In this document: one piece after another, positions 44,541 through 64,000 of the stretch | Layout of the letters: each line of letters opens with the position of its first letter | How positions within the stretch are numbered: position 1 is the first letter of the stretch | Source: an uncultured Gammaproteobacteria bacterium | GTDB lineage: Bacteria; Patescibacteriota; Microgenomatia; Levybacterales; UBA12049 | Direction of reading: 5' to 3' | DNA length: 64,000 nucleotides | Assembly (NCBI GenBank): GCA_964503265.1 | Contig: CAZCYO010000001.1 | Coordinates: forward strand, 25,119 to 89,118 | Program-made: the position numbers and the translations under genes | The notes under the pieces: model-generated | Seen by the model: only the letters and a program-made list of their open reading frames with translations | Databases searched by the model: none | What the model was told of the DNA's origin: nothing

Positions 44541-45299
44541 ATGAGTGCCCACATATCCCTCTCAGTAATTATTCCTTGTTTTGAAGAAATGGCTAATCTC
44601 CAAAAGGGCGTACTTGATAAAGTAAATAACTATCTTGCACGTAAAAAATTCGATTATGAAGTCATTATTGTGGATGATGGTTCACATGATGGAAGTGTGG
44701 ATTTTGTTGAAGAATTTATTACTGACAACCCCAAATTTAGACTCATTAAAAACTCTCATACTGGTAAGGCTGGGGCAGTCACAGCTGGCATGCTTACTGC
44801 TAAACATGAGTTATCGCTCTTTACAGATATGGATCAGGCAACTCCTATTGAAGAACTCGAAAAATTACTTCCGTATTTTGATGAAGGATATGATGTGGTG
44901 ATCGGATCACGTGCAAATACTCGAAAAGGTTCTCCACTGATTCGTCAATTTATTTCTCGTGCGAATATGGTTCTCCGGAAAGCCATTGTCGGAGTGAGAG
45001 ATATCTCAGATACTCAGTGTGGGTTTAAAATGTTTCGTACATCAGTCGCAAAAGATCTTTTTAGTAAAGTAAGTACCATTCATAATGGATTTAAGCATAT
45101 AAATGGATCGAGTGTCTCAAGTGGCTTTGATGTCGAGTTACTTTATATCGCTGAAAAAATGGGAAATAACATAAAAGAAGTTCCAGTACGATGGCTTTAT
45201 GTTGAGACGAGACGGGTTAATCCAGTGAAAGATTCGATTGACGGAGTGAATGAATTATTAAAAATTAAAAAAAATGCGCTTTCTGGGAAATATGATTGA
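44541..45299 (+). CDS. GT2 glycosyltransferase (polyprenyl-phosphate sugar synthase, DPM1/ArnC-like)
   Basis: LSVIIPCFEE...VIIVDDGSHDGS, DxD (TDMDQ), QCGFK. Confidence 0.85.
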   Translation: MSAHISLSVIIPCFEEMANLQKGVLDKVNNYLARKKFDYEVIIVDDGSHDGSVDFVEEFITDNPKFRLIKNSHTGKAGAVTAGMLTAKHELSLFTDMDQATPIEELEKLLPYFDEGYDVVIGSRANTRKGSPLIRQFISRANMVLRKAIVGVRDISDTQCGFKMFRTSVAKDLFSKVSTIHNGFKHINGSSVSSGFDVELLYIAEKMGNNIKEVPVRWLYVETRRVNPVKDSIDGVNELLKIKKNALSGKYD

Positions 45300-45341
45300 A
45301 CTTGCGTATGGCATAGAGCAAATGGCGTATAGTTATAATAC

Positions 45342-46526
45342 ATGATTTTTTTAAAACAGTTATCTAAAACAGAAAAAATAGTCCTTGGGTTTTATATCAT
45401 CGCTTCTGTACTTCTTCTTCTTTATTCTTTCACGCAAATAGATTTAGGACTTGTTATATCGCGGTTTCCCTTTCTTTATGCTTTTGAGAAAGCATTTCAG
45501 AATATCGGATACTTTAATCGTCCACTTTCGACGCTTCTTTTTATTCTATTAATACTTCTTTTCTCAGGGATGTATCTTAATGTCGTTGGATCAATTAAAC
45601 ATATTTCGCGAAAAGCGATCTGGATGATTGTTCTCTCAGTTTCGGTTATTCTTTTTCTATCGTATAACGCTTTCTCTTATGACTTATTTAACTATATTTT
45701 TGATGCAAAAATTCTGACACAGTATCATGCAAATCCATATCTCCACAAAGCGTTAGATTATCCAGCTGACCCGATGCTTTCGTTTATGCACTGGACACAC
45801 AGAGTATATCCGTATGGGCCAGTATGGCTTGCTGTCACTGTACCCTTATCATACTTAGGAATGGGACTATTTCTCCCGACGTTTTATCTATTCAAATTAC
45901 TTATGCTCGCATCATATGTAGGAACGACGTATGTTATTGGAAAAATTCTTCGAACTATTTCGCCAGAATCTGAAACAGCTGGTTTGGTAATATTCGCGCT
46001 CAACCCTTTGGTTATTTTTGAAACGCTTATCTCAGCACATAACGATATCTTTATGATGTTTCTCATGGTATTGTCGCTTTATTTACTTCTTAAAAAGAAC
46101 ATGATATGGAGTGTTTTTATCACTGTTCTTTCAATTGCTACGAAATTTGCGACACTATTTTTGTTACCGATGTATGTTTTATTATTCTTAAAGCGAAAAA
46201 ATATAACTGAGAAATACTGGAATACGATGATGATTTTGGGAGTAGCATTGATGTTTCTGGCGGTACTAGTCGTATCTTACCGATCTAATTTCCAACCATG
46301 GTATCTTCTCTATGTTTTGCCTTTTATCTCTCTCATAACGAAAAACAAATCATGTATCTATCCGTCATTTTTTCTCTCAATTATCGCACTTGGAAATTAT
46401 CTGCCATATTTATATATGGGAACATGGACTGATCCAGTGATGCAGTATTTGTTTTGGGTAAATAGTATTTGTGGATTAATCAGTGTTATTTGGTTTTCAA
46501 TACTTGTTACAAAGAACTCTAACTAA
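45342..46526 (+). CDS. polytopic membrane protein, GT-C-like (DUF2029/GT87-like?)
   Basis: ~11 TM with extracytoplasmic loop motif after TM1. Confidence 0.4.
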   Translation: MIFLKQLSKTEKIVLGFYIIASVLLLLYSFTQIDLGLVISRFPFLYAFEKAFQNIGYFNRPLSTLLFILLILLFSGMYLNVVGSIKHISRKAIWMIVLSVSVILFLSYNAFSYDLFNYIFDAKILTQYHANPYLHKALDYPADPMLSFMHWTHRVYPYGPVWLAVTVPLSYLGMGLFLPTFYLFKLLMLASYVGTTYVIGKILRTISPESETAGLVIFALNPLVIFETLISAHNDIFMMFLMVLSLYLLLKKNMIWSVFITVLSIATKFATLFLLPMYVLLFLKRKNITEKYWNTMMILGVALMFLAVLVVSYRSNFQPWYLLYVLPFISLITKNKSCIYPSFFLSIIALGNYLPYLYMGTWTDPVMQYLFWVNSICGLISVIWFSILVTKNSN

Positions 46527-47800
46527 TATCTTTTAATTTCTTTGTTCTTATTTCCTTGATCTTGCCAGATTTGATAAAAGTAGGCTTTTATATCTCCTTC
46601 ACTATAACTAATTGCACCGTATTTAGTAATTTGCTCTCTTGCAGCAATTCGCTGATGATCAATTCCTTTGTCTGTTGGAAGTTCCAAAAGTGCTTTGACG
46701 TTATAAAAACCATAATAAAGCCAATATACACTAAAAAGTGTTATGAAAATTGGCCGATTAATGTTAATTAATCGATACATGATATATACGATCATATAGA
46801 TCACAAGTGGCATGTGAAGTAAAAAATAATAGTCAGAAATACTTCCTTTATATAACGTAAATCCGATGACTGGAACGGCAAACCATGGAATCATCAGAAG
46901 GCCGAGTTGTTGTAGTTTTTTATCTTTCTCAAACGCTGTAAGAATAAAAAATACAGCTGGAATAATATATTTTAACATTGCTAATTGTTTAAAGAACAGG
47001 AGAGCTTCGAATTGAACAAGCGACTGTGGAAGTCGAAAAAAGAAAAAACGTAAATGAAATGATTGAGTATATGAACTATTAAAATCTTTTATTCGATATG
47101 TTTCCCCATGTGCTCCCTGTATATCGAAAATGATGGTCGGAATAAAGAAAAGAACATAGACAAAAAAACTTGGAATAATATACTTGATACTTTGTTTCCA
47201 GTCTTTAAAAAATATCAGTGAAAGTACAATAATTGGTGGAATAAAAAGAAATGTAAAGTGAAGATGAAAAAATAGTCCCGATAACGCTGCAAGGATAGGG
47301 AACCAGTAATATTTTTTTTGATACAGCTGGTAAATTCCATAATACAGGAGAATAGAAACAGCCGGAACAAGTGAGACGTTATATTGAATTTGACTTTGGT
47401 GGATCAGATAAAAACTAAAAATATAGAGTGTTGATGCAGCGACAGCAACCTTTTCTGAAAATAGTTTTTTCGAAACGAAATAAAATACACAGATATTGAT
47501 AATGTACGCGATCATGACAGAATAATTACTGGCAACAGGGTCCAGATTCGTGAAATAGAAAAAAGGCGCTAGGAAGTAAAAATAAAATGGTCCAATTGGA
47601 ATACGTCCAGCTCCTGTTATGGGGCCATCTAGGACGAGTTGTCCGCGAAGAAGATCTCGGACTTTCCATGCATCTCGAGCCTGATCCCACCCAAATTCCT
47701 GAGTTACGTTAATAGCATGGAATCGAAGATAAAAACCAATAAGAACGAGAAGAAGAAAGAGAAGATAATATTTGTAGCGGAATATAAAAGCCATCTTCAT
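46523..47800 (-). CDS. GT-C membrane glycosyltransferase (PMT/ArnT GT39/83-like)
   Basis: F.WDQARDAWKVRDLL...GP first-loop motif, ~11 TM. Confidence 0.5.
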   Translation of the reverse strand: MKMAFIFRYKYYLLFLLLVLIGFYLRFHAINVTQEFGWDQARDAWKVRDLLRGQLVLDGPITGAGRIPIGPFYFYFLAPFFYFTNLDPVASNYSVMIAYIINICVFYFVSKKLFSEKVAVAASTLYIFSFYLIHQSQIQYNVSLVPAVSILLYYGIYQLYQKKYYWFPILAALSGLFFHLHFTFLFIPPIIVLSLIFFKDWKQSIKYIIPSFFVYVLFFIPTIIFDIQGAHGETYRIKDFNSSYTQSFHLRFFFFRLPQSLVQFEALLFFKQLAMLKYIIPAVFFILTAFEKDKKLQQLGLLMIPWFAVPVIGFTLYKGSISDYYFLLHMPLVIYMIVYIMYRLININRPIFITLFSVYWLYYGFYNVKALLELPTDKGIDHQRIAAREQITKYGAISYSEGDIKAYFYQIWQDQGNKNKEIKRY

Positions 47801-47860: not shown

Positions 47861-47885
47861 GTCATTCCCGACTTGATCGGGAATC
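47861..47885. repeat. hairpin repeat GTCATTCCCG-loop-CGGGAATC
   Basis: gtcattcccgacttgatcgggaatc. Confidence 0.7.
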
Positions 47886-47920: not shown

Positions 47921-47975
47921 TTTATTTTTGAGAATCTCGTTTGCTTCCCATTTCATTTGCTCGTATAATAATCAT

Positions 47976-49514
47976 ATGGTTCTTATAAAAAAGTATTGGA
48001 AAGAAATACTCATCAGTCTAGCACTTGTAGTTGGATATTTTTTCCTTCGTCTCCTTTCTTTACAAAGCCTCCCTATTTTTACTGATGAAGCTATTTATGT
48101 TAGATGGGCACAAATTGCACTTCAGGATGCGAACTGGCGATTCATATCTCTAACTGATGGTAAGCAACCTATGTATGTCTGGGTTGCGCTTATTTTCATT
48201 AAATTTATTCAGGATCCACTAATCGCTGGACGAATGGTATCTGTAGTTTGTGGGTTTTTTACATTGGTTGGTTTGTGGCTTCTATCATATGAGCTATTTA
48301 AAAATAAACGAATGGCTTTTTTGACTGCACTGTTATATGTCGTTTTCCCTTTTGCACAAGTGCTTGATCGGATGGCTCTCTATGACAGTATGGTAGGCGC
48401 ATTTGCTGTTTGGGGGCTTTATTTATCGATTCTTCTTGTTAGGCACAGAACAGTGACTAATGCATATACACTTGGTATTATTTGGGGAGGAGGAGTGCTT
48501 ACTAAGACGAATGCGTTTTTTAGTATTGCAGCAGTACCACTTACTCTCCTTTTAGGTAACTTTGAAAGAAAAAATTGGAAAAAAGAAATCGTACGCTGGA
48601 TACTGCTTGCAGGGTTTGCTGCAATCATTTCTCAGGTAATGTATACGATCCTTCGATTGTCTCCACTTTACGGCATGATTAATACGAAGAATGCTACCTT
48701 TGTTTATCCAGTTGGTGAATGGATTCATCACCCTTTAACCTATTTCTCTGGGAATTTTCATGGATTAACTAGTTGGTTACTCCAATATCTAGGAATCTCA
48801 TATTCGTTACTCCTCGTTCTTGGACTAGGCGTTTTTATGAAAGAATGGAAAGAAAAAGTTGTCCTATTTATCTACTTTTTGGCTCCATTTATATTTCTCG
48901 CACTATTTGGAAAAGTTATTTTCCCTCGTTTTATTTTCTTTACGAGCCTTATGCTACTTCCAATTATTGGATGGGGACTTAATTTTATTTTAAATGGTAT
49001 TTCCTATTTTCTAAAATCAAAAGATAAACAGTTTATCTCTATAACTCAGATACTTGTCGTGATTCTCTTTATTATATATCCGCTTTATACGTCAGTCACT
49101 TTTGCCGTTGATCCGACAAAGGCTCCTATCGCTGATGCAGATAATGTGCAATATATAAACGGATGGAACGCAGGATGGGGTGTTGATCAAAGTATCGAAT
49201 TATTTAAAAAAGAAGCGCAGGATAAAAAAATATTTATCGGTACAGAAGGAACATTCGGTATGATGCCTTTTGCACTTGAAATGCAGCTTGTTGATAATCC
49301 AAATATAATTCTAAAAGGGTATTGGGGATTTGATAAAACACTTCCAGATGAAGCTTTGGTCTATGCTAAACAAATGCCAGCATATTTCGTGTTCTATCAA
49401 CCCAACCATCGTCCACAGCTAGATGCAAATTTGTATCCAATGAAATTAGTATTTAAAGTCCAACAAGGAAATACAAATTATTATTATTCGGTTTACCAAA
49501 TCATCTCCCGATAA
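47976..49514 (+). CDS. GT-C membrane glycosyltransferase (PMT/ArnT-like)
   Basis: FTDEAIYVRWAQ (DE motif loop 1), ~12 TM; track ORF begins at TTG 47928. Confidence 0.5.
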   Translation: MVLIKKYWKEILISLALVVGYFFLRLLSLQSLPIFTDEAIYVRWAQIALQDANWRFISLTDGKQPMYVWVALIFIKFIQDPLIAGRMVSVVCGFFTLVGLWLLSYELFKNKRMAFLTALLYVVFPFAQVLDRMALYDSMVGAFAVWGLYLSILLVRHRTVTNAYTLGIIWGGGVLTKTNAFFSIAAVPLTLLLGNFERKNWKKEIVRWILLAGFAAIISQVMYTILRLSPLYGMINTKNATFVYPVGEWIHHPLTYFSGNFHGLTSWLLQYLGISYSLLLVLGLGVFMKEWKEKVVLFIYFLAPFIFLALFGKVIFPRFIFFTSLMLLPIIGWGLNFILNGISYFLKSKDKQFISITQILVVILFIIYPLYTSVTFAVDPTKAPIADADNVQYINGWNAGWGVDQSIELFKKEAQDKKIFIGTEGTFGMMPFALEMQLVDNPNIILKGYWGFDKTLPDEALVYAKQMPAYFVFYQPNHRPQLDANLYPMKLVFKVQQGNTNYYYSVYQIISR

Positions 49515-49516
49515 GT

Positions 49517-51106
49517 ATGGAACTAGTAAAACATATTCTGAGAGCAAAGCTTTTTACTATCATACTTATTCTGTTATGCTCACTTCCACTTATTTTTCCA
49601 TTATTCCATCCAGGATTTTTTGTCTCAGACGATGGAGATATATTGATAATACGTTTAACTGCTTTTCATGAAGCTTTTGCACAGGGTCAATTTCCTGTTC
49701 GACTTATTCCACGATTATATTTCCATTATGGTTATCCGGTAAGTAATTTTTTATACCCAGGATATCTATATATTTCAGAAGCATTTCACCTAATTCATTT
49801 CGGATTTATTAATTCTATAAAAATACTACTCATTCTTTCTCTCAGTTTGAGTGGAGTATTTACTTATTTGTGGCTTAACAAATGGTTAAAAAAATTCCCA
49901 AGTATCATCGGAAGTTTAGTATATTTGTATGCTCCATATCATTATTACGATATGTATAAACGTGGATCTATAGGAGAAGTGTTGGCTCTTGCAGTTGTGC
50001 CATTTGTTTTTTGGGTGATGGAACTGCGATATGTTTCATTAATTATTATTGGGTTATCTTTTCTTATTATTTCACACAATACGCTTGCTATAGTCTTTCT
50101 CCCATTACTTGTTAGTTACTATTTTATTCGACATAAGGTATGGCAGCGAAAAAATGAAATCCTCCGCATGAGTCTTTTTCTCATTATTTCTCTACTAATT
50201 TCATCTTTCTTCTGGATACCTGCACTCTATGAATTGCACTATACGATTTTCTCACAGACAACAGTCAGTGAAATAGGAAATTATTTTATCCAACCGGATC
50301 ATATGCTTTTTGGAAAATTGAGTTACTTTTATTTGGTTGTAACTGCAGGTATTTCATTTGTTCTTTTCAAATACAGACAGAAAGTAGAGAAAATAAACAT
50401 GGCTTTACTAACTTTTCTAGGATTTTTTAGCACAATTGCATTATTCTTAAATACTTCACAGAGTGTAATTATTTGGAATACTTTACCAATTTCATTTATT
50501 CAATTTCCGTTTCGTTTGTTCGCTATTACTATGATTTTCTTTGCGATGGTGGTGGCTATCGTAATCGATATGATAAAAGGTAAAAAGCAATATGTTGTTG
50601 GCGTAGTACTTGCTATTCTTTTTATTGGCCCTTTATTCTTTTTTATTCGACCTCAAGAATATTCAGGAAGAGATGACATGTTTTATTCAACGAATGATGA
50701 TTCAACAACGATAAAAAATGAATACTTACCGACATGGGTTAAAGAGCGATCTTTTTCAAAACCAAAATCAGAAATAGAAGGCAAAGGAGTAACATATCTT
50801 GGAGAAAAGAAAGGCACATACATGATAGATGTTACAGGAGATAGTTCGCGAAACATGAGATTTAACATGATTTATTATCCAGGATGGGTTGCAAAAGCAG
50901 ATGGAGTTATGATCCCAATTAGTTACAACAACAATAAAGGAGTAATGGATGTCGTAATACCGAGAAACACTAATCAAGTGACATTTATGTTTACTGAAAC
51001 ACCAGTTCGAATGATTAGTAATATTTTGTCAATTATCGGTCTTATATTCTTAGGTATAGTACTTGTTCGAGATATAACAATATATTATGCAGCTAGTAAA
51101 AAATAA
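49517..51106 (+). CDS. polytopic membrane protein, paralog A
   Basis: PLFHPGFFVSDDGD...FPVRLIP...GYP..FLYPGYLYI; 13+ TM. Confidence 0.4.
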   Translation: MELVKHILRAKLFTIILILLCSLPLIFPLFHPGFFVSDDGDILIIRLTAFHEAFAQGQFPVRLIPRLYFHYGYPVSNFLYPGYLYISEAFHLIHFGFINSIKILLILSLSLSGVFTYLWLNKWLKKFPSIIGSLVYLYAPYHYYDMYKRGSIGEVLALAVVPFVFWVMELRYVSLIIIGLSFLIISHNTLAIVFLPLLVSYYFIRHKVWQRKNEILRMSLFLIISLLISSFFWIPALYELHYTIFSQTTVSEIGNYFIQPDHMLFGKLSYFYLVVTAGISFVLFKYRQKVEKINMALLTFLGFFSTIALFLNTSQSVIIWNTLPISFIQFPFRLFAITMIFFAMVVAIVIDMIKGKKQYVVGVVLAILFIGPLFFFIRPQEYSGRDDMFYSTNDDSTTIKNEYLPTWVKERSFSKPKSEIEGKGVTYLGEKKGTYMIDVTGDSSRNMRFNMIYYPGWVAKADGVMIPISYNNNKGVMDVVIPRNTNQVTFMFTETPVRMISNILSIIGLIFLGIVLVRDITIYYAASKK

Positions 51107-52784
51107 ATCATTTTTCTATTTAGTACTTCTTTGTGTGCTATCAGTGCTAACTGTATTACCATTTTTTTATAATGGTTTTTTCACGATGCATGATAATACT
51201 CAGGTAGCTCGTGTTTCAGAGATGTCACTCAGTCTTCGTGACGGAATGATACCCGTTCGTTGGGTGATGAATCTAGGATATGGATATGGGTATCCTATTT
51301 TTACGTTCTATGCGCCTTTTGCATATTATATAGGTGCTTTCTGGATGACTTTTGGACTAGATGCTCTTGTTGCTACAAAACTAATGATGATGAGTGGCGT
51401 TATATTAGCAGGTATGTTTATGTATTTGTTTGCAAAAGATATCTGGGGAGAAGAAGGAGGGTTTGTTGCCGCTCTTTTCTACTTATTTGCTCCATATCAT
51501 GCAGTGAATATTTATGTACGAGGTGCGGTTGCAGAGTTTTGGGGAATGGCTTTTTTACCCTTACTTTTTTATGGGATATGGAATACCTATAAAACAGGAA
51601 AATGGCGTTATGTATGTATAAGCAGTATCGCATACGCAGGCATTATTCTGTCACACAACTTAACTGCGATGATGGTTACACCGTTTGTTCTTGTTGTTAT
51701 TGGTGGGATGAAAATCATGTATCTCTCAAGAAAAGAATATAAAAAAATACTACCACTTGGAATACTTTTGATACTCGGAATAACACTTTCTGCATTTTAT
51801 TGGCTTCCAGCAGTTACAGAGATGAAGTACACGAATGTTGTTTCACAAATAACAGGAACAGGTTCAAAATTTGGTGATCACTTTGTTTGCATGAATCAGT
51901 TGTGGGATAGTGCATGGGGATATGCTGGCTCAGCACCAGGATGTGTTGATGGTATTTCATTTAGAATCGGTAAGCTTCATATTCTTTTTACTATTATCGG
52001 GATTATTCTAGGAATTTTTATCTACAAAAAGAATAGAGAAAAAGGAATTATACTTGGTGGAAGTATTTTATTTTTTTTCGCAGCAACTTTTTTAACACTT
52101 CAAAACTCTGAACTTCTCTGGAAAAGCATTTCTGCGATGTCGTATTTTCAATTTCCGTGGCGCTTTCTGTTACTTGTCGTATTCTTTTCATCATTTATTA
52201 GTGGAGGAGTGATCTGGTATGTCCGTGAATACCTTCAAAACCAAAGAATACTATTTTATGCTTTTCTTATTGGAGTCATGCTTGGGTGCATACTATTATA
52301 TTCAAAATTATTTGTTCCACAACTCTTAACTCAAGATACAGCTAAATCACTAACTGATTCCAAATCAATTCGTTTTACTATTTCTAAAATATCAGATGAG
52401 TATATGCCTAAAAATTTTCACAAACCTTTGACCGAAAGTGACGTAGTAACTGAAAAAAGTGCCATTATTAATGGCCAAGGAACAATTAATGAACAACCTA
52501 TACTGTCCTATGCTCAGGGATATTCTGTTGAAGCTATTACTCCTGTTACTCTTCTTTTGCGAACTGCGCCGTTTCCAGCATGGAGAACATATATTGATGG
52601 CAAAGAAGTACCACACACGAATCTGACGTCAGGAATGAAGGTAGTAGTTCCGATCGGAACACATATGGTATCAGCACAATATATATCAACATGGATTGAA
52701 ATGACAGGAAATCTAATAACTCTTACTAGTATGCTAGGGCTTGTTATTGGTATAATTTATTTGCATAAGAAAAACATGCTCTAA
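51087..52784 (+). CDS. polytopic membrane protein, paralog B of 49517..51106
   Basis: PFFYNGFFTMHDN...IPVRWVMNLGYGYGYPIFTFYAPFAYYI aligns with paralog A; YLFAPYH shared. Confidence 0.4.
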   Translation: MQLVKNKSFFYLVLLCVLSVLTVLPFFYNGFFTMHDNTQVARVSEMSLSLRDGMIPVRWVMNLGYGYGYPIFTFYAPFAYYIGAFWMTFGLDALVATKLMMMSGVILAGMFMYLFAKDIWGEEGGFVAALFYLFAPYHAVNIYVRGAVAEFWGMAFLPLLFYGIWNTYKTGKWRYVCISSIAYAGIILSHNLTAMMVTPFVLVVIGGMKIMYLSRKEYKKILPLGILLILGITLSAFYWLPAVTEMKYTNVVSQITGTGSKFGDHFVCMNQLWDSAWGYAGSAPGCVDGISFRIGKLHILFTIIGIILGIFIYKKNREKGIILGGSILFFFAATFLTLQNSELLWKSISAMSYFQFPWRFLLLVVFFSSFISGGVIWYVREYLQNQRILFYAFLIGVMLGCILLYSKLFVPQLLTQDTAKSLTDSKSIRFTISKISDEYMPKNFHKPLTESDVVTEKSAIINGQGTINEQPILSYAQGYSVEAITPVTLLLRTAPFPAWRTYIDGKEVPHTNLTSGMKVVVPIGTHMVSAQYISTWIEMTGNLITLTSMLGLVIGIIYLHKKNML

Positions 52785-52791: not shown

Positions 52792-53541
52792 ATGGCTGCA
52801 AAGAAACTTTCACTTGAAATTACAATCCCTGTCTATAATGAAGAAAAAGAGCTTGAGGATAGTATTTTAAAACTCCATACTTTCTGTAAAAAAAACATGC
52901 AAGACTATGCGTGGCGAATAACTATCGCAGATAACGCGTCAAGTGATAATACACCAGTTATTGGAGCGACTCTTGCTAAGAAATACTCTGAAATAAAATT
53001 ATTTCGTTTAGAAGAAAAGGGAAGAGGACGTGCTGTAAAGAGGGCATGGAGTGAGTCAGATTGTGATATTTGTGCTTATATGGACTTGGACCTTTCGACA
53101 GATTTAAAGCATCTCCCAGCCCTTTGTAAGGCGCTTGAAAATGGATATGATATTGCGATTGGATCTCGACTCAAAAAGGGAGCGCTTGTTGAGGGAAGAA
53201 CAATGCTTCGAGAAATAACGTCTCGTACACTTAATTTCTTTTTTATTAAATTATGGTTCCAAACATCATTTACTGATGCACAGTGTGGTTTTAAAGCAGT
53301 TACGCGAGACGTTGTTGAGAAACTTATTCCAAAAATTCAGGATAATGGATGGTTTTTTGATGGAGAATTACTTATCGTTGGTGAGAAAAGTGGATATAAC
53401 ATATATGAAGAGCCCGTGCACTGGGTAGATAATCCTGGTTCAACAGTTCGCCTTATTTCAACTATTTCAGGGGATATACGAGTAATGTTTCGATTACTTA
53501 CTACTAAGCCATGGAAACAGATCTCATCGAACCTAACATAG
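52792..53541 (+). CDS. GT2 glycosyltransferase (DPM1-like)
   Basis: ITIPVYNEE...ITIADNASSDNT, DLD, QCGFK. Confidence 0.85.
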   Translation: MAAKKLSLEITIPVYNEEKELEDSILKLHTFCKKNMQDYAWRITIADNASSDNTPVIGATLAKKYSEIKLFRLEEKGRGRAVKRAWSESDCDICAYMDLDLSTDLKHLPALCKALENGYDIAIGSRLKKGALVEGRTMLREITSRTLNFFFIKLWFQTSFTDAQCGFKAVTRDVVEKLIPKIQDNGWFFDGELLIVGEKSGYNIYEEPVHWVDNPGSTVRLISTISGDIRVMFRLLTTKPWKQISSNLT

Positions 53542-56810: not shown

Positions 56811-57556
56811 TTTTATTAAGTGCGGTTATTATTTCTAAAAACGAAGAAGAAATTATTGCAGACTGTATTGATTCGGTATCGTTTTGTGATGAGATTTTGC
56901 TTATTGATAACAATTCTACAGATAGAACTGCCGAGGTGGCAAAACGATTAGGGGCAAAAATTATTATAGCTGACACTAATAATTTTTCAGAACTTCGTAA
57001 TAGTGGACTTAAGAATGCAAAGGGTAAATGGATACTTTACATTGACGCCGATGAAAGAGTCACACCTGAACTGCAAAACGAAATAATAGAAAAAGTAAAT
57101 GAAAAAAAGAATGTATTCAGTGCTTATAAACTAAAACGGAAGAATTATTATTTAGGGAAATTTGAATGGCCAAAAATTGAGGAAATCACAAGACTTTTTA
57201 AAAAAACTGACTTACAAGAATGGTTTGGGAAACTTCATGAGAGTCCACGAGTCTTAGGTGAGGTGGGAGAAATTGATGGATTTCTTAACCATTATACTCA
57301 TCGTAACTTAACGTATATGGTTACGAAAACGAATAGATGGTCTGAGATTGAAGCAGAACTGCGTTTTGAATCTCATCATCCTAAAATGACATGGTGGAGA
57401 TTTCCACGAGTAATGATGACTGCTTTTTTTGATTCGTATATTAAGCAAAAAGGATATAAACTTGGAACTGCAGGTATTATTGAGAGTATATTTCAAGCAT
57501 ACAGTATGTTTATTACCTATGCAAAGTTATGGGAGAAACAACAAATAAAAAAATGA
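56807..57556 (+). CDS. GT2 glycosyltransferase
   Basis: LSAVIISKNEEE...LLIDNNSTDRT, IDADE. Confidence 0.8.
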   Translation: MILLSAVIISKNEEEIIADCIDSVSFCDEILLIDNNSTDRTAEVAKRLGAKIIIADTNNFSELRNSGLKNAKGKWILYIDADERVTPELQNEIIEKVNEKKNVFSAYKLKRKNYYLGKFEWPKIEEITRLFKKTDLQEWFGKLHESPRVLGEVGEIDGFLNHYTHRNLTYMVTKTNRWSEIEAELRFESHHPKMTWWRFPRVMMTAFFDSYIKQKGYKLGTAGIIESIFQAYSMFITYAKLWEKQQIKK

Positions 57557-58626
57557 AAATAGGAATTTATGATATGTATTTAGATGCGATGGGAGGCGGA
57601 GAAAAATACATGCTCACTATAGCATCATATTTATCAGAGATTCATTCAGTTGATCTTTTTTGGGATGATAAGACTATTCTAAAAAGAGCAGAAAAAAGGT
57701 TTCCACTTAACTATTCTAATATATCTGTTGTAAAGAACTTGTTCATGTCACCATCATCATTTTTTGAAAAAAAGAAAAAAATGGAATCATATGATCTAAT
57801 TATTTATTTAAGTGATGGAAGTATTCCATTTCTTTTTGGAAAGAAAAATATATTACATTTCCAATTTCCAACGCCGTGGGTAAAAAGTCAAAATATATTA
57901 ACGAAATTAAAATTATCAAAGATTACAAAAGTAATATGTAATTCGAATTATACAAAAAAATATATTGATGATATTTTTCATGTCTCCTCAGAAGTCCTTT
58001 ATCCACCATGTACGCTGATTAGACATACTGAAAAAAAACAAAATATTATTCTAACGGTAGGGAGATTAAATATTTTATCTGAGAATAATGACTTTAAGAA
58101 ACTTGAATGGATGCTTTCTGTATTTAAAAATCATATTTATCCTGATTTTAACGACTGGAAATTTATAGTAGTTGTTACATGTGTTGAAGAAGACAAAAAA
58201 ATAGTTGAACAATGGAAAAAAGATGCAGAAAAATTTCCTATTGAAATTATGACTGATATAGAATATTCAAAGCTTGCAGAATTCTATAGTGTAGCGAAGA
58301 TATATTGGCATGCTGCAGGGTATGGAGAGGATCTAAACAAACATCCAGAACGAGCAGAACATTTTGGTATTGCCCCTGTTGAGGCGATGAGTGCGGGTAC
58401 TGTCCCAATTGTAATTAACGCTGGAGGAATTCCTGAAATAATTGATGAAGGTAAAAATGGAATGGTATGGACGACTGAGAAAGAATTAATTTCAAAAACT
58501 AAACAAATGATAATACATAATGACACTCGAGAAAAATTAGCCGAAAATGCGACACTCAAATCAGAATTATTTTCCGAGGAATCATTCGTTAAAAAATTAT
58601 TATCTATAATTCAACAGATATCATGA
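57553..58626 (+). CDS. GT4 (GT-B, retaining) glycosyltransferase
   Basis: EHFGIAPVEAMSAGTVPIVINAGGIPEII E-x7-E motif; ATGA start/stop overlap (track ORF from 57529). Confidence 0.85.
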   Translation: MKIGIYDMYLDAMGGGEKYMLTIASYLSEIHSVDLFWDDKTILKRAEKRFPLNYSNISVVKNLFMSPSSFFEKKKKMESYDLIIYLSDGSIPFLFGKKNILHFQFPTPWVKSQNILTKLKLSKITKVICNSNYTKKYIDDIFHVSSEVLYPPCTLIRHTEKKQNIILTVGRLNILSENNDFKKLEWMLSVFKNHIYPDFNDWKFIVVVTCVEEDKKIVEQWKKDAEKFPIEIMTDIEYSKLAEFYSVAKIYWHAAGYGEDLNKHPERAEHFGIAPVEAMSAGTVPIVINAGGIPEIIDEGKNGMVWTTEKELISKTKQMIIHNDTREKLAENATLKSELFSEESFVKKLLSIIQQIS

Positions 58627-60854
58627 AAAGAGTTTGGTTTATTTTATTACTTATTGGAAGTCTTTCTCTTTTTTTTAAAGATACGTTCATAAAACAATTA
58701 TTACCTATTCCTTCAGATACAATTATCGGCCTTTACTATCCGTATATTGATTATTTTTCCCCAGTATATGAAAGAGGTTATCCGTATAAAAATTTCCTTA
58801 TAACTGATCCAATTCGTCAAACATACCCATGGAGAAATTTATCTATTGAAATTGAAAAAAAGTTTGAACTTCCCATATGGAATCCATATAGTCTTTCAGG
58901 AACTCCATTACTTGCAAATTTTCAAGCAAGTAGTTTTTATCCCTTAAATATTATTTTCTTTTTATTACCATTTTCATTTGCGTGGTCAATTCTAGTAATC
59001 ATAGCACCTCTATTAGCAGGGCTATTCATGTTTGCGTTTCTTGCTAATAAAAAACTTAATTCATGGAGTTGTTTACTTGGTGGTATAAGCTTCGCTTTAT
59101 CAGGTTTTTTTATTTCCTGGCTTGAATGGAATGTTTTAACGCATGTAGTTCTTTGGCTACCATTACTTCTACTGAGTATAGATAAAATATCTGAACAATC
59201 TAAAAAAAATATTTTTTGGGTTATTCTTTTTACTTTTTCACTATGTTCATCATTTTTAGCTGGACATTTACAGACGTTTTTCTATGTATTTTTGACGACA
59301 TTTGCGTATTTCATCTTTCAATATCCATTAATTAACAATAAGAAAAAGTATATAGTCTCTGTTCTTATTGGAATAGTATTATTTACTCTTATTACACTTC
59401 CACAGTCAATTCCTGGATTTAGATTTATTATAGAATCTGCTCGAGATATTGATCCAATTAGCATAGAAACACAATCACAGTATTTACCATGGAAGCACAT
59501 AGTGCAATTCTTAGCTCCTGACTTTTTCGGTAATCCAGCTAAAGGAAATTACTGGGGGGAATGGAATTATGGAGAATTTATATCTTATATTGGACTATTT
59601 CCATTTATATTTGCACTTTTTTCAATTCTTTTTAGAAAAGATCGTGACACTAAATTTTTTATCGTAATATTCATCGTATCTTTAGTGTTATCTCTTCCTA
59701 CATTTTTTGCTAAATTGCCATTTCTTTTCCATGTGCCATTCTTATCAACATCTCAATCAACGAGAATACTTTCCTTAGCTTGTTTTTCTCTGTCCATTCT
59801 TGCAGCATTTGGACTTGATCACTACGAAAAAGAAAAAAGGAAATTATTTATTCCAATTGGAATACTGCTTATTGTTTTTGCACTTCTTTGGGCGTTTATA
59901 TTCATTCGACAACAAGTAATCCCAGTTTCGCTGGAACAATTATTTGTTGCTAGAAGAAACCTTTATTTTCCAAGCGTTTTACTATTTATTACAGAAGTAA
60001 TTGCATTACTTGGATTACTGATCAAGCAAAAAAAACACATGTATATTTTTTATTCTTTAGTGTTTGCTATAACACTTTTTGATTTACTATGGTTTGCTAC
60101 TCGATTTACACCGTTTACTCCTAAAGAATTTTTATACCCAAAAACAAAAATTGTTTCGTATTTACAAAATAATTTAGGAAACAGTCGTTATATGAGCATC
60201 GACTGGCGTATTCTACCTCCTAATTTCTCAATTATGTACAAACTGCAATCAATTGATGGGTATGATCCTTTGTATCTTCGAAGGTATGGAGAATTTATTG
60301 TTGCTTCAGAACGCGAAAAACCTGATATTTCCACACCGTTTGGATTTTATAAACGTATTACTCCGTATAACTATAATTCTCAACTAATTGATCTTCTTGG
60401 TGTGAAATTTGTGTTAAGTTTATACGAACTGCAATCCCCTAAATTGACGAAAGTATTTGAAGAGGGATTGACGAAGGTTTATGAAAATAAAGATGTATTA
60501 CCACGAACATTTTTTGTGAAAAAAACTATTGTAATTCCTCATACACAAGAAAATATTAACATGCTATTTGCTTCAAACTTTTCACTTCGAAATAACGCAA
60601 CTGTTGAAGAAGGAAATTCGAAAGACATAAGTGTTGGGAAAAGTAACATCATTTCGTATAAGCCTAATGAAGTAACTATTAGGACTGAAAATACTGGTGA
60701 AGGCTTTCTTGTTTTATCTGATACATACTATCCGACCTGGCACGTTCAGATTGATGGTGTTGAAGCGAAACTCTACAGAGCAGACTATGCCCTCAGAGGT
60801 GTATATGTTCCGAAAGGTAATCATGTAGTGAGATTTTATGATACGCTTTTCTAA
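58623..60854 (+). CDS. YfhO-family membrane protein
   Basis: PIWNPYSLSGTPLLANFQASSFYPLNII motif typical of YfhO; ~14 TM + C-terminal beta-domain. Confidence 0.65.
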   Translation: MKRVWFILLLIGSLSLFFKDTFIKQLLPIPSDTIIGLYYPYIDYFSPVYERGYPYKNFLITDPIRQTYPWRNLSIEIEKKFELPIWNPYSLSGTPLLANFQASSFYPLNIIFFLLPFSFAWSILVIIAPLLAGLFMFAFLANKKLNSWSCLLGGISFALSGFFISWLEWNVLTHVVLWLPLLLLSIDKISEQSKKNIFWVILFTFSLCSSFLAGHLQTFFYVFLTTFAYFIFQYPLINNKKKYIVSVLIGIVLFTLITLPQSIPGFRFIIESARDIDPISIETQSQYLPWKHIVQFLAPDFFGNPAKGNYWGEWNYGEFISYIGLFPFIFALFSILFRKDRDTKFFIVIFIVSLVLSLPTFFAKLPFLFHVPFLSTSQSTRILSLACFSLSILAAFGLDHYEKEKRKLFIPIGILLIVFALLWAFIFIRQQVIPVSLEQLFVARRNLYFPSVLLFITEVIALLGLLIKQKKHMYIFYSLVFAITLFDLLWFATRFTPFTPKEFLYPKTKIVSYLQNNLGNSRYMSIDWRILPPNFSIMYKLQSIDGYDPLYLRRYGEFIVASEREKPDISTPFGFYKRITPYNYNSQLIDLLGVKFVLSLYELQSPKLTKVFEEGLTKVYENKDVLPRTFFVKKTIVIPHTQENINMLFASNFSLRNNATVEEGNSKDISVGKSNIISYKPNEVTIRTENTGEGFLVLSDTYYPTWHVQIDGVEAKLYRADYALRGVYVPKGNHVVRFYDTLF

Positions 60855-61803
60855 TATGAATATTAGTATAATTATTCCTAATTATAATGGTGAAGAAATA
60901 CTTGAAAAAAACCTTTCTTCTGTTCTTTCAATTCTCTCAAAATATAAAAATGGCGAAAAAGAACTAATTGTCATTGATGATGCATCACGTGATTCTTCAG
61001 TAAAAATCATACAACAACTATTTGAACGTTTTAAAGATAGCAATATTACTACTACATTACTTGAAAATAAACGAAATGTGGGATTTTCACCGACTGTAAA
61101 TACAGGGATAACGATTGCACGTGGCGAGATACTTATATTACTAAATACTGACGTTATTCCAGAGGATAATTTTATCGAACCTCTTCTTACTCATTTTTCA
61201 GATGAATCTGTATTTGCTGTCGGATGTCTTGAACGAAGTGTAGAGGGGGAAACTATTGATCTTTATGGAAGAGGGTTAGGAAAGTGGGAACATGGATTTC
61301 TTGTTCATCGGGCAGGTGATGTAAACGAAAAAAATACACTCTGGGTAAGTTGTGGAAGTGGTGCATTCAGAAAAACTATATGGGAAAAACTCGGTGGTCT
61401 TAATGAAGTATATGCGCCATTTTATTGGGAAGATATCGATCTTTCGTATCGTGCGCTTAAATGCGGGTATACAGTGGTTTTTGATTCAAAAAGTGTCGTA
61501 ACTCATAGGCATGTTGATGGTGCAATTAAAAAAACACAAAAATCTTCATATATCCGAAGTATTGCGACACGAAATCAATTTCTTTTCGTTTGGAATAATG
61601 TAACAGATACATCGTTAGTATTATCACACATCTTTTCTCTTCCAATACATATAGCTCGTGCAATACGACATGGAGATCTACCCTTTATTATTGGTTTTTT
61701 TAAAGCAATTGGGAAATTCCAGAATGTAATCACATATCGATCACATATGATTAAACACTTTAAAAAGAGTGATGCAGAAGTTATCCGGGAGGTAAATAAA
61801 TGA
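60838..61803 (+). CDS. GT2 glycosyltransferase
   Basis: ISIIIPNYNGEE...LIVIDDASRDSS, NTDV. Confidence 0.85.
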   Translation: MIRFSNMNISIIIPNYNGEEILEKNLSSVLSILSKYKNGEKELIVIDDASRDSSVKIIQQLFERFKDSNITTTLLENKRNVGFSPTVNTGITIARGEILILLNTDVIPEDNFIEPLLTHFSDESVFAVGCLERSVEGETIDLYGRGLGKWEHGFLVHRAGDVNEKNTLWVSCGSGAFRKTIWEKLGGLNEVYAPFYWEDIDLSYRALKCGYTVVFDSKSVVTHRHVDGAIKKTQKSSYIRSIATRNQFLFVWNNVTDTSLVLSHIFSLPIHIARAIRHGDLPFIIGFFKAIGKFQNVITYRSHMIKHFKKSDAEVIREVNK

Positions 61804-63734
61804 TCTTGTTTGGAGGAATATATTTTTTTATTTTGCTTGGGTTATTTATTTATCTTCCTGGCAGATTTGCTTTGAGAATGAGTAGATTTTTAATAACTGA
61901 TCCAGTTATTCGTATACCAATTGAATTTGGAGTTGGTAGTGCAGGCTTTATGATAGCGATGTATTTCCTCTCATGGATACACGTCGAGCTACTATATTTG
62001 TTTTTATTATTTCCAATTATATTTTTTGAAGTAAAACACAGTTTTTATTTCATCAAAAAGATACAATGGCCTTTTCCATTTTTTGAATCATTTATTATTC
62101 TCCTTGGAAGCTGTATTGCATTATTTATAACGGGGCGATCAGGATATATCCACAATGGCGAATTATTTTTTTATGGTGTGAATGCAACTGATGCTATATT
62201 TCATTTAAGCCTTATTGGGAATCTGATGCATGAATTTCCGCCGACGCATGCAGGAATGGCAGGAATTAGTCTCCATGGATATAACTTTCTTTATGATTTA
62301 TTTATAGCAAATTTTGCGAAGTTTTTCTTTTTAGATCCAATGGACCTTTTCTTTAGGTACTTTTCACTATTCGTCTCACTTTTTTATGGATTTTCATCTC
62401 TTGCATTAGCTCGTTTTCTGAAAATGGATAAAGTAACTTCAAGAATATTTATTTTTCTAGCATTTTTTGCACAAGGAACTACTTTTATTTTCAATTATCT
62501 TCATATACTATATGATCCTGCTATTGTTCAGCCGCTAGGAAATATCGTTGACCCATCTGTTCTTTTTTCTATCTCTCTTTTCTATATATCAGTAGTTCTA
62601 TTATTTTCTCTTACTAATAAATCACATGTGATTGTTACAGCAATTATATTCTCTGTAGTTCCTATGATTAAGATTTATACTGCTTTTTTACTTTTTTGCG
62701 CACTTGGAATTGTAACTATTATTGCATTTATCAAAAATAGTAAAAATAAATATAACTACATAATGGTTTTGTTGTTAGCTGGAATTATTGGTGGTGTTAT
62801 GTATGCTCCCATAAACTTAGGAGTTGGCAAACTTATTTTTGCACCATTCTTATTTTATTCACATTTTCTAGAAAGCTATTCCCCAATGAATAACTCAGAT
62901 TGGTGGATGAGAATGCTTGTTTATTTTGAACATAAGAATTACTTACGTATTATTGAGAATTACATTATTCTTTTGGCACTTTTTTTTATTCCATCCTTAA
63001 GTTTAAGAGTGTTTGGATTAGTACAAATAAGACGTATATTTAATAAAGACTTCTATTCACTTCAAAACACATTTTTTATCAGTGCTGTGGTACTAGGTGT
63101 GTTTATTCCTAGTTTTTTTATACAAAATATTGCCGTATTTGTTATTGTTCAATTTCTATGGATAACATATTTTATTTTGTTAATCCCCGCGGCTTTTGGA
63201 ATATCTTCACTGTATGCTATTACTCCCCGTTTTGGAAAGATAATCGTGTTGCTAGTGATGATTATTATTTCACTTCCAGATTTATTTTCTCTAGTAACGG
63301 TTTATGCAAGGAAGCCTCTTATTATTTCATCATCAGAAGTGGCTATCGCAAATTTAATAAAAGATACTGTACCACAAAAGAGTACACTTCTTGTATTGAA
63401 CACTCATAAATTAGGAGAACGTTTTGAAACTTCCTATACAATTCCAATTGTTTCTGCTTTGAGCAGACATGATGTATACTATGAACCTGAAGTGCTTGAA
63501 TTTTCGGGACTAGATATGGAAGTTATTAAAAGAAAAGAACTTATTTCTACAGTAGATCAAATATTATCGAATTGCTCAGATAGTAAAAATACTAATGATA
63601 AAATTATTTCTTTATTAAAAATTGCAAAAAGCAACTATATAGTAACTCTTGATAATAAACCTTGCTTTCAATCCCTTCCATCGTTTATTCTCTTATCTCA
63701 GAAAGGAGAAGCTGCCCTCTATAAACTCAGATGA
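61800..63734 (+). CDS. large polytopic membrane protein (GT-C/polymerase-like), unknown
   Basis: 644 aa, >14 TM. Confidence 0.35.
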   Translation: MILFGGIYFFILLGLFIYLPGRFALRMSRFLITDPVIRIPIEFGVGSAGFMIAMYFLSWIHVELLYLFLLFPIIFFEVKHSFYFIKKIQWPFPFFESFIILLGSCIALFITGRSGYIHNGELFFYGVNATDAIFHLSLIGNLMHEFPPTHAGMAGISLHGYNFLYDLFIANFAKFFFLDPMDLFFRYFSLFVSLFYGFSSLALARFLKMDKVTSRIFIFLAFFAQGTTFIFNYLHILYDPAIVQPLGNIVDPSVLFSISLFYISVVLLFSLTNKSHVIVTAIIFSVVPMIKIYTAFLLFCALGIVTIIAFIKNSKNKYNYIMVLLLAGIIGGVMYAPINLGVGKLIFAPFLFYSHFLESYSPMNNSDWWMRMLVYFEHKNYLRIIENYIILLALFFIPSLSLRVFGLVQIRRIFNKDFYSLQNTFFISAVVLGVFIPSFFIQNIAVFVIVQFLWITYFILLIPAAFGISSLYAITPRFGKIIVLLVMIIISLPDLFSLVTVYARKPLIISSSEVAIANLIKDTVPQKSTLLVLNTHKLGERFETSYTIPIVSALSRHDVYYEPEVLEFSGLDMEVIKRKELISTVDQILSNCSDSKNTNDKIISLLKIAKSNYIVTLDNKPCFQSLPSFILLSQKGEAALYKLR

Positions 63735-64000
63735 AGTTGTCCATAGTCATCCCTGTATTTAACGAAGAGAAAACTATCGTAATTGTTCTCAAAAGACTTC
63801 TTGCTCTAGAGTTGCCAGGCATTAAAAAAGAAATCATTGTTGTTGATGATGGTTCTATCGATAAGACGTTAAATAAAATTAAACGATTTGTTTCTACTCA
63901 TCCAGAGATTATTATCGTTTCCCATGAACGAAATTACGGGAAGGGAAAAGCGATACGAAGCGGCATAAAAAAAGCTAAAGGCACCTATATTCTTATTCAA
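63731..64000 (+). CDS. GT2 glycosyltransferase, 3' end off window
   Basis: LSIVIPVFNEEKTI...IIVVDDGSIDKT; ATGA overlap with upstream stop. Confidence 0.8.
   Translation, partial: MKLSIVIPVFNEEKTIVIVLKRLLALELPGIKKEIIVVDDGSIDKTLNKIKRFVSTHPEIIIVSHERNYGKGKAIRSGIKKAKGTYILIQ

Follow-up and report, generated by a model that had tools for sequence, protein, structure and literature searches.

A conserved glycan assembly locus of a CPR bacterium that may join a flipped lipid-linked oligosaccharide to extracytoplasmic GT-C glycosylation

Among the closest described counterparts of the locus analysed here are the Gram-positive multi-component transmembrane glycosylation systems (CsbB/GtcA/YfhO; GtlA/GtlB; CsdAB/CD/EF with CflA; GacI/GacJ/GacK/GacL), and the pairing of neighbouring GT-A and GT-C genes is a known rule for systems of this kind (PMC8035078). 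In the Agl pathway of Haloferax volcanii, AglJ, AglG, AglI and AglE work on dolichol phosphate, with AglR as Wzx-like flippase and AglB as oligosaccharyltransferase (OST), and the last mannose comes from AglD and AglS; the pathway uses both a polyprenyl-P-mannose-dependent GT-C and an STT3-type GT-C, and needs no phosphoglycosyltransferase (PGT) (PMC3871713). The Pgf system of Streptococcus mutans (PgfS, PgfM1, PgfE, PgfM2) likewise combines a GT2 with GT-C-type membrane proteins, and mycobacterial and corynebacterial assembly of LM/LAM and arabinogalactan (Ppm1, PimE, MptA/B/C, AftA-D, Emb) employs GT87, GT85, GT53 and GT83-type GT-Cs. Our literature search found no biochemical or glycan study of any CPR bacterium.

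The window, i.e. the whole stretch of 64,000 nucleotides analysed, comes from a CPR/Patescibacteria bacterium that has a tiny genome and probably belongs to the Microgenomates. Its positions 44541-64000 (19,460 of 64,000 bases, or 30%; 99.8% coding by gene calls and Pfam) hold 16 consecutive genes, designated A to P, all of which are glycan-related according to gene calls, Pfam and NCBIfam. They encode seven GT2 proteins (one truncated at the window end), one GT4, one Wzx/MOP flippase, six GT-C proteins recognisable by Pfam (one GT87-like, two PMT_2, two PTPS_related and one YfhO) and a Pfam-less protein of 644 aa, O. The first-pass annotation had listed such a cluster and assigned it about one third of the window; gene calls and Pfam recovered every component that it named. 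Gene overlaps, which it reported as well, take the form of exact ATGA overlaps at five junctions (I/J, J/K, L/M, N/O and O/P), a convergent 4-nt overlap at B/C, C being the only minus-strand gene of the cluster, and longer ones, of 11-31 nt, at E/F, G/H, H/I, K/L and M/N; by these junctions the cluster genes are translationally coupled.

Dozens of loci from metagenomes and MAGs, labelled Patescibacteria, Levyibacteriota or Microgenomates, show the same A-P order, which is kept almost without exception even where orthologues share as little as about 26-40% identity. In 27 loci, 12 or more of the cluster genes are present, and adjacency was counted for H-I in 82 loci, I-J in 70, K-L in 50 and N-O in 21 of 23. 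The most conserved core begins with F, the order F-[DPM1-like GT2]-H being found in 72 loci, and N adjoins O even in distant loci, two of which carry O+N pairs (L022 and L024). Sixteen adjacent glycan genes, in an order maintained across dozens of further contigs, exclude chance as the origin of the cluster.

On balance, sequence and fold comparison makes it probable that A-P form a conserved envelope-glycan assembly locus of hybrid type, which would unite a lipid-linked oligosaccharide, flipped across the membrane, with sugars that GT-Cs add outside it from three polyprenyl-P-sugar donors. In this scheme, for which we infer the donors, the order of steps, the flippase substrate and the acceptor, four GT2 proteins (I, J, K and N) and the GT4 L would assemble an oligosaccharide on a polyprenyl carrier at the cytoplasmic face, and H would transfer it outward. 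The small soluble DPM1/ArnC-like proteins A, G and P would load single sugars onto polyprenyl phosphate, and seven multi-pass GT-Cs (B, C, D, E, F, M and O) would add sugars outside the membrane, probably one linkage each; one GT-C, most plausibly O, may pass on the flipped oligosaccharide en bloc. As the product we consider a complex heteroglycan, anchored in the wall or membrane, most likely, with protein glycosylation as the main alternative.

The GT-C proteins recognisable by Pfam are B, C, D, E, F and M, all of which exceed Pfam gathering scores; the Pfam clan GT-C (CL0111) includes PTPS_related, PMT_2 and GT87 (PMC7801869). B (45342..46526, plus strand, 394 aa) is GT87-like (PF09594, 33.1 bits, cut-off 25), and its match to the MptA equivalog TIGR03459 (4e-15) reaches 55.6 bits against a cut-off of 439, so B was rejected as an MptA orthologue. 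C (46523..47800, minus strand, 425 aa; PMT_2, 30.8 bits, cut-off 26.1) is lineage-specific, with an orthologue at the same position only in locus L103. D (47928..49514, plus strand, 528 aa from TTG, with an ATG at 47976) matches PMT_2 (8e-14) and PMT (8e-5). E (49517..51106, plus strand, 529 aa; PF10131, 38.6 bits, cut-off 26.4) and F (51087..52784, plus strand, 565 aa; 33.1 bits) are PTPS_related paralogues (hhalign E 9e-114), and M (58623..60854, plus strand, 743 aa) is a YfhO-family protein (93 bits, E 2e-26) with a C-terminal outside domain of about 250 aa; E, F and the YfhO family are mutually related with hhalign probabilities of 99-100% (E versus YfhO, 99.5%). Of the seven GT-C candidates, six have in the first outside loop an acidic residue that is at least 95% conserved among orthologues: D114/D121 in B, D53 and E54 of a DE motif in D (19 orthologues), D39 in E, D36 in F, D62 in M (90 orthologues) and D131 in O. 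C carries a WDQARD motif after TM1 in the same loop, with too few orthologues to score conservation. The GT-C fold fits either donor, a polyprenyl-P-monosaccharide or a polyprenyl-PP-oligosaccharide, and does not by itself favour one of them. Compared with mycobacterial LM/LAM and arabinogalactan assembly, lineage and envelope differ, the genes form one operon-like block, and DPA-pathway genes are absent from it; since the matches lie far below equivalog level, the cluster proteins are not orthologues of the mycobacterial enzymes. NCBIfam matches across the whole cluster also fall far below equivalog cut-offs and do not indicate sugar specificities.

Three of the seven GT2 proteins are candidate polyprenyl-phosphate-sugar synthases resembling DPMS, GtrB and ArnC. 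A (44541..45299, plus strand, 252 aa; DMD at 96-98; PF00535, E 1e-26) has PgfS and ArnC as its best NCBIfam matches, and DPMS (5mlz from Pyrococcus, 4e-15), GtrB (5ekp) and ArnC as its closest solved structures. G (52792..53541, plus strand, 249 aa; DLD at 98-100; PF00535, 1e-22) matches the NCBIfam models for Dol-P-hexose transferase, ArnC and AglJ, and its only solved relatives are DPMS 5mlz (2e-18) and ArnC. P (63731..64000, plus strand) is cut by the window end, and its first 90 aa (MKLSIVIPVFNEEKTI...DDGS) are DPM1-like; its full-length orthologue in L001, a GT2 of 237 aa, matches DPMS 5mlz along its whole length (8e-15) and also aligns with ArnC and GtrB, and although chondroitin synthase outscores DPMS, the latter is its sole full-length match. 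The DXD motifs are conserved in the orthologues of A and G, the two complete candidate synthases, which are soluble proteins and for which, unlike GtrB, CsbB, ArnC and Pyrococcus DPMS, no TM helices are predicted. The unusual richness in DPM1/ArnC-like synthases claimed by the first-pass annotation accordingly holds for A, G and P and fails for the other four GT2 proteins, which look ordinary. Compared with S. mutans Pgf, which A recalls through PgfS (65.6 bits, cut-off 500), the array is much larger and has no epimerase.

The arrangement of these genes resembles that of the Gram-positive systems, with which the cluster shares a GT2, here a putative sugar-activating enzyme, adjoining a GT-C transferase, the YfhO and PMT_2 families and the acidic residue in the first outside loop (PMC8035078). 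The hybrid scheme is supported by the neighbour pairs A-B, F-G and O-P, which match the GT-A/GT-C pairing rule, and by G-H, in which a soluble GT-A beside a Wzx-type flippase mirrors GacI/GacK in the GacI/GacK/GacL model (PMC8035078). Pairs of GT-A and GT-C neighbours typify separate modules in Bacillus, Listeria and Lactococcus (PMC8035078), and the locus could be read as independent three-component modules (A+B, G+H+F, and P with O or with downstream PMT_2, YfhO and similar proteins), each decorating a different existing polymer (teichoic-acid-like, peptidoglycan or lipoglycan) and co-located for co-regulation only, while I-L and N would yield a cytoplasmic product of their own. Modular evolution is suggested by the variable YfhO copies and the lineage-specific C, and the module reading also draws on the G slot, which relatives fill with differing DPM1-like types, at least two in number. 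We nevertheless regard this explanation as unlikely, given the near-invariant A-P order down to the lowest identities, the translational coupling, which fits a single pathway better, and the presence in the window of seven GT-Cs for three synthases. The cluster further departs from the Gram-positive systems in placing seven or more GT-Cs together with three candidate synthases in a single array, co-directional except for C, in lacking a GtrA/GtcA-type flippase and a GacJ-like helper, neither of which is encoded in the cluster, and in adding both a new GT-C family and a cytoplasmic branch of five enzymes. With 99.8% of the cluster sequence taken up by the listed genes, there is no space for a GtrA-type gene. 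The missing flippase of this type and helper, like the TM-free A and G, weigh against the hybrid scheme.

The remaining soluble glycosyltransferases look like ordinary cytoplasmic enzymes supplying the flippase, a branch that the first-pass annotation left out. H (53511..54983, plus strand, 490 aa) is a Wzx/MOP-family flippase (Polysacc_synt_3, E 1e-40; NCBIfam MOP flippase 8e-31, O-glycosylation Wzx 5e-21, TuaB 3e-18). I (54973..55896, plus strand, 307 aa; PF00535, 4e-17) is an ordinary Leloir-type GT2 and a paralogue (hhalign E 5e-65) of K (56807..57556, plus strand, 249 aa; PF00535, 6e-22; also matched in NCBIfam). J (55893..56810, plus strand, 305 aa; PF00535, 3e-15; TIGR01556, 2e-16) is rhamnosyltransferase/GlfT1-like and a paralogue (hhalign E 1e-23) of N (60838..61803, plus strand, 321 aa; PF00535, 2e-24), which is MftF/PgaC/EpsD-like by NCBIfam. 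L (57529..58626, plus strand, 365 aa; Glycos_transf_1, 9e-18) is a GT4 of GT-B type whose likely start is the ATG at 57553, where an ATGA occurs. Four ordinary GT2 proteins, a GT4 and a Wzx flippase together imply a lipid-linked oligosaccharide.

A Wzx-type flippase with five soluble glycosyltransferases would also be expected of a classical Wzx/Wzy-dependent O-antigen, capsule or exopolysaccharide locus, which we consider very improbable here. Neither the cluster nor the recurrent extra genes of relatives yielded a Pfam family for Wzy, WaaL/O-antigen ligase, Wzz/chain-length regulator or LCP ligase, and export proteins were likewise absent from the window and relatives. For a priming PGT, no match to PF00953 or PF02397 was obtained in the scanned ORFs of the window, and no KFR[ST]M or DG[IL]DGL-type motif in 1.56 Mb comprising the window and 115 related loci. 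This absence counts against the hybrid scheme as well, in which the flipped oligosaccharide would need a start. O, for its part, was rejected as a Wzy/RodA/WaaL-type protein, its model having a GT-C fold. To our knowledge, no outer membrane with LPS is known in CPR bacteria. The preference of the first-pass annotation for extracytoplasmic glycosylation over O-antigen synthesis is in this respect supported in silico, by homology, by fold and by the missing Wzy, WaaL, Wzz and PGT.

O (61800..63734, plus strand), with about 14 TM segments and a C-terminal alpha/beta domain, is by its predicted fold (a high-confidence model) the seventh GT-C of the cluster. The first-pass annotation had named assignment of the membrane proteins to non-GT families as counter-evidence; six of them match families of the GT-C clan, and O has the GT-C fold. 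On the same model, its family, with about 1,585 representative clusters and named carriers that are almost all Patescibacteria, is a putative membrane glycosyltransferase family not recognised before. In hhalign comparisons O reached a probability of 79% against E and of 6-34% against YfhO, and against F the value of 82% from one alignment fell to 14% when a larger alignment was used; a PDB profile search with O at E up to 10 returned no GT-C or OST chain. STT3/AglB/PglB enzymes show no detectable sequence similarity to O, which has three additional N-terminal helices, and other GT-C families score nearly as high as they do in fold comparison.

These features bear on a dedicated general protein glycosylation pathway of archaeal Agl type, in which G would prime polyprenyl phosphate, extension would fall to I, J, K, L and N and flipping to H, and an STT3/AglB-like O would attach the glycan en bloc to surface proteins such as S-layer proteins or pilins, with the remaining GT-Cs adding final sugars (as AglS/AglD) or O-mannosylating proteins (as PMTs). 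With Agl the cluster shares clustered GT2 proteins, a DPM1-like one included, and a Wzx-like flippase (PMC3871713), and as in Haloferax there is no priming PGT nearby; G matches the AglJ and Dol-P-hexose transferase models, I has the protein glycosyltransferases GmaR and SunS as its closest solved relatives, and PgfS is the top NCBIfam match of A. However, these NCBIfam matches are far below cut-offs, the host is bacterial, and at least seven GT-Cs greatly exceed what known protein-glycosylation systems require. A WWDYG/WWD-type motif is absent from O and from the family consensus, and no STT3 (PF02516) signal appeared in 34 family members even at E 5. In other genomes, moreover, O-family members are fused to a polysaccharide-deacetylase/hydrolase-fold domain, a hint of a polysaccharide acceptor that favours glycan over protein substrates. 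We therefore judge this pathway rather unlikely, if still the chief competitor of the hybrid scheme. More speculative, and doubtful in our view, is the proposal that the O family is the bacterial counterpart of STT3/AglB-type OSTs, or an en-bloc glycan ligase, in a PGT-independent Agl-like pathway in which a DPM1-like GT2 starts on polyprenyl monophosphate, Wzx flips and the glycan is transferred en bloc; if true, CPR bacteria would own a lineage-wide surface-glycosylation system distinct from the PglB, PglL and LCP routes.

In relatives, the locus continues downstream with five to six further multi-pass membrane proteins, mostly GT-C-like, and additional YfhO paralogues occur, their presence varying between loci.

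The sixteen genes of the glycosylation cluster, lettered A to P in order, fill positions 44541-64000 of the window; 15 of the 16 lie on the plus strand. With 99.8% of the region accounted for by the listed genes, no space is left for unlisted ones inside it. ORF listing and Pfam searches assigned seven genes to GT2 families (A, G, I, J, K, N, and P, starting at 44541, 52792, 54973, 55893, 56807, 60838, and 63731, respectively, the last being cut by the window end after 90 aa), one to GT4 (L, start 57529), and one to the Wzx/MOP flippases (H, start 53511; Polysacc_synt_3, E 1e-40; NCBIfam MOP flippase, 8e-31). Six multi-pass proteins exceed the Pfam gathering cut-offs of GT-C-clan families: GT87 in the case of B, PMT_2 for C and D, PTPS_related for E and F, and YfhO for M. 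PTPS_related, PMT_2, and GT87 are members of clan CL0111 (PMC7801869), and YfhO is treated as having a GT-C fold (PMC8035078). The remaining gene, O (61800-63734), encodes a 644-aa protein with about 14 hydrophobic segments and no Pfam or NCBIfam match. Adjacent genes share exactly ATGA at five junctions and overlap by 11-31 nt at most of the remaining ones. The inventory and coordinates of the first-pass annotation agree with this listing, as do its statements that about a third of the window (30%) is devoted to glycan assembly and that the genes are coupled by overlaps. Counts from a promoter and terminator scan matched those of shuffled sequence, and operon boundaries can therefore not be claimed.

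The GT2 enzymes differ in the relatives they match. Among solved structures, A and G come closest to the Pyrococcus Dol-P-Man synthase (5mlz) and ArnC, and A also to GtrB (5ekp). A full-length orthologue of P (237 aa), taken from the related locus L001, aligns with 5mlz from end to end, with chondroitin synthase scoring higher over the N-terminal part. NCBIfam matches likewise point to PgfS, ArnC, Dol-P-hexose transferase, and AglJ, all far below equivalog cut-offs. Both A and G are about 250 aa long, and a simple hydropathy scan found no TM segment in them. I and K form a paralogue pair (hhalign E 5e-65) with GmaR and SunS as best solved relatives, and J and N form another (hhalign E 1e-23), which is rhamnosyltransferase/MftF/PgaC-like. 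Judged from sequence, three of the seven GT2 enzymes look DPM1-like, that is, like putative polyprenyl-phosphate-sugar synthases, and the other four together with the GT4 enzyme resemble ordinary nucleotide-sugar transferases. The proposal of a repertoire rich in such synthases would apply to A, G, and P but not to I, J, K, and N, and a DPM1-like identity for all seven was rejected, since the two separate paralogue pairs have their best matches among other kinds of GT2.

Orthologue alignments showed that the DXD-type motifs of the cluster GT2 enzymes are kept, and that acidic residues in the first loop of the GT-C proteins are retained in at least 95% of orthologues (B D114/D121, D D53-E54, E D39, F D36, M D62). 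PDB sequence searches with B, D, and M returned no related structure, and an exact-sequence look-up with the YfhO protein gave no match.

Protein O merits separate treatment. A first search identified 47 homologues, which are mostly some 640 aa long and show no consistent Pfam domain; in a 34-sequence alignment, D131, D166, R186, and K291 are invariant, and a Pfam search of these 34 members up to E 5 gave no recurring family. An exhaustive profile search extended the family to 1,585 representative clusters at E ≤1e-3 (808 at 1e-30), and a PDB sequence search with the family profile found no related structure. The AlphaFold2 model is confident (pLDDT 89.8, pTM 0.91), and its top Foldseek ranks are oligosaccharyltransferases (OSTs), AftA, and DPY19, with probability 1.0 and TM-scores of 0.41-0.53. 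On the predicted fold, O represents a sizeable new GT-C family, isolated by sequence and outside Pfam coverage. Clear membership of PTPS_related or YfhO was not accepted, because the hhalign links to both were weak, unstable, and inconsistent, and identity as a Wzy polymerase or WaaL ligase was rejected on the fold. Despite the OST-like fold, O was not filed as an OST: it has no WWDYG motif and no STT3 sequence signal, and STT3 serves as a working analogy only. In other genomes, members of the O family are fused to a DUF3863-like ectodomain of polysaccharide-deacetylase/hydrolase fold. These fusions support a topology with the N-terminus outside, which would place the conserved "TDAIFH" loop (carrying D131) outside the membrane. 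They also hint that the O family handles glycans, not proteins. A dedicated protein-glycosylation system appears unlikely.

None of the window ORFs that were scanned with Pfam or read by eye encodes a recognizable priming phosphoglycosyltransferase (PGT) or Wzy, WaaL, Wzz, LCP, or GtrA family member. A crude scan for PglC/WbaP-type and MraY/WecA-type motifs over 1.56 Mb (the window and 115 related loci, L001-L115) gave only two false matches, both in GT4 genes, and the cluster itself contains no nucleotide-sugar synthesis genes. The best models for H are Wzx flippases of oligosaccharide units. With Wzy, Wzz, ligase, and PGT all missing from the ORFs and loci scanned, a classical O-antigen locus was rejected, as the first-pass annotation had anticipated, and a classical Wzx/Wzy locus is very improbable.

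We consider, with moderate confidence, that a hybrid extracytoplasmic model best explains the cluster. In one branch, I, J, K, L, and N would assemble an oligosaccharide on a polyprenyl carrier, which H would flip; in the other, A, G, and P would produce polyprenyl-phosphate monosaccharides to be spent outside the membrane by the GT-C enzymes. The described rule of GT-A/GT-C pairing holds for the neighbors A-B, F-G(-H), and O-P, and the position of a soluble GT-A next to a Wzx flippase corresponds to that in the GacI/GacK/GacL scheme (PMC8035078). The oligosaccharide might start either from a PGT encoded elsewhere in the genome or by build-up on a polyprenyl-phosphate sugar, as in Haloferax, where a glycan is built in this way (PMC3871713). 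With the latter start, O would be the best candidate for en-bloc transfer. At least seven GT-C enzymes for three donors resemble the logic of mycobacterial LM, LAM, and arabinogalactan assembly, which favors a complex heteroglycan as the product, as do the fusions of O homologues to a deacetylase-fold domain.

The arrangement is widely conserved. The order F-G-H-I-J-K-L-M-N-O-P surrounds O homologues in at least 15 genomes (O identity 35-66%). Querying metagenomes with protein D alone yielded nothing; a flippase alignment as query brought up at least 389 relatives, from which 80 loci were kept, and these carry the conserved order further upstream, as A-B-D-E-F. Loci L036-L115 derive from groundwater, peat, and sediment samples. 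Where a contig carries both genes of a neighboring pair, they nearly invariably sit side by side (82 of 83 loci for H-I, 70 of 70 for I-J, 50 of 50 for K-L, and 21 of 23 for N-O), and at least 12 cluster genes are present in 27 loci. Set against this adjacency, the view that the cluster is a collection of independent modules, of which the GT2/GT-C neighbor pairs might be examples, is distinctly unlikely. The F/H slot always holds a DPM1-like GT2, the type of which varies (44 G-type, 15 P-like, 13 A-like). Extra YfhO copies occur in the D/E gap of 13 loci and the K/L gap of 28, and some relatives have insertions, which in 11 loci encode a 705-aa protein with a PBP_dimer domain and in 3 loci a member of the phosphodiesterase/sulfatase family.

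Gene C (46523-47800, minus strand) is the sole reverse-oriented gene of the cluster, and its start faces an intergenic region bearing hairpin repeats. An orthologue was seen in one other locus only (L103), and elsewhere D directly follows B, which suggests a lineage-specific insertion.

In relatives, the genes downstream of P comprise two of the PMT_2 family, PTPS_related genes, and others for further 12-14-TM proteins, with another PMT_2 in some, so the locus spans at least 30 kb and runs off the window. For this continuation with its insertions, the coordinates are 12734-21923 in L001, 12634-21929 in L002, 16639-18756 in L041, and 13262-14578 in L083. The lower GC of the 3' half (0.31-0.33) might suggest a recent horizontal island, yet this was rejected, since relatives throughout the lineage keep the gene order.

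In the species-representative genome set, O relatives come from records that bear the names Patescibacteria group, Candidatus Levyibacteriota, Gottesmanbacteria, Microgenomates group, Paceibacterota, and Saccharimonadales, and in one instance Candidatus Eisenbacteria (L030); within Patescibacteria, Levyibacteriota is placed in the Microgenomates group. The Patescibacteria-type cluster is also present in many TPA MAGs with the title "uncultured Gammaproteobacteria bacterium" (L004-L013, L018, L020-L024, L028, L029), one of them on a 785-kb contig, and these titles look like default mislabels. The window was accordingly attributed to a CPR bacterium, probably from the Microgenomates group, an inference given that L001, the nearest fetched relative, shares only about 70% DNA identity with it.

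The working logic is similar to that of Gram-positive multi-component transmembrane glycosylation systems and mycobacterial GT-C assembly lines, but the cluster is not an orthologue set of either, as all equivalog scores are far below cut-off. It differs in uniting three putative synthases, at least seven GT-C enzymes, and a five-enzyme cytoplasmic branch in one block, and in having no GtrA flippase, no predicted TM helices in the complete synthases (A and G), and a new GT-C family. CPR/Patescibacteria have tiny genomes, are mostly uncultured, and are thought to be host-attached; to our knowledge, their surface chemistry is essentially unknown, and a search of the available literature library on their GT-C, YfhO, OST, and mannosyltransferase enzymes or cell envelope found no paper describing the locus. 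The contigs covered by the analysis measure 0.78 to 1.13 Mb, so that about 20 kb in the window, and at least 30 kb in relatives, spent on one glycan pathway amounts to several per cent of such a genome, with an unusually dense GT-C array (seven in the window and around twelve in relatives). The product is thereby singled out as a major and probably essential component of the envelope, one that might plausibly mediate attachment to a host. The general logic is familiar, but its scale within so small a genome, its conservation throughout the lineage, and the new O family recommend the cluster as a starting point for studying the CPR envelope. The GT2/GT-C sets A-B, G-H-F, and N-O-P could be reconstituted in E. 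coli, giving a first biochemical handle on CPR glycans without cultivation.

The hairpin repeat facing gene C (ATTCCNG-N6/7-CNGGAAT, often followed by GACA) has five copies in the window (7228-7247, 7729-7748, 7911-7930, 47864-47884, and 47897-47916) against about zero expected by chance, two of them within the divergent C/D intergenic region. One 28-nt sequence, ATAGATTCCCGTTTTCACGGGAATGACA, recurs unchanged at 7727 and 47894. Nearly absent from related loci (1 of 115), the repeat might serve as a terminator or regulator site or belong to the REP-like elements. Directly 5' of A, about 1 kb (43545-44540) has higher GC (~45%, in a window of 31-45%) and contains only Pfam-less ORFs (43746-44093, minus; 44162-44452, plus), together with a 12-bp terminator-like hairpin (44349-44323, minus strand). 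This segment showed no similarity to the related loci, and a permissive Rfam search of 43400-44600 gave sub-threshold terminator-like matches only.

Outside the cluster, the window encodes ordinary housekeeping functions (HflX, MutL, MutS, Lon), one tRNA-Glu, and an RHS toxin. The RHS-repeat protein (15623-22246, plus; 2,207 aa) ends in an Ntox33 toxin domain, and small unannotated ORFs downstream (22247-24512) could be immunity or orphan modules; together they would give this CPR bacterium, with its small genome, a polymorphic toxin system. Two Acyl_transf_3 membrane acyltransferases (3772-4809, minus, 345 aa; 36717-38648, minus, 643 aa) could O-acylate the cluster's surface glycan or peptidoglycan. 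A 437-aa Pfam-less protein (12261-13574, plus) adjoins a weak MGH1-like/GDE_C glycoside-hydrolase-like protein (13628-14932, plus), and a Pfam-less 353-aa protein (32803-33864, plus) has a HAD-like DxDxT start (ITDLDDT); both groups may be products of sugar-metabolism genes.
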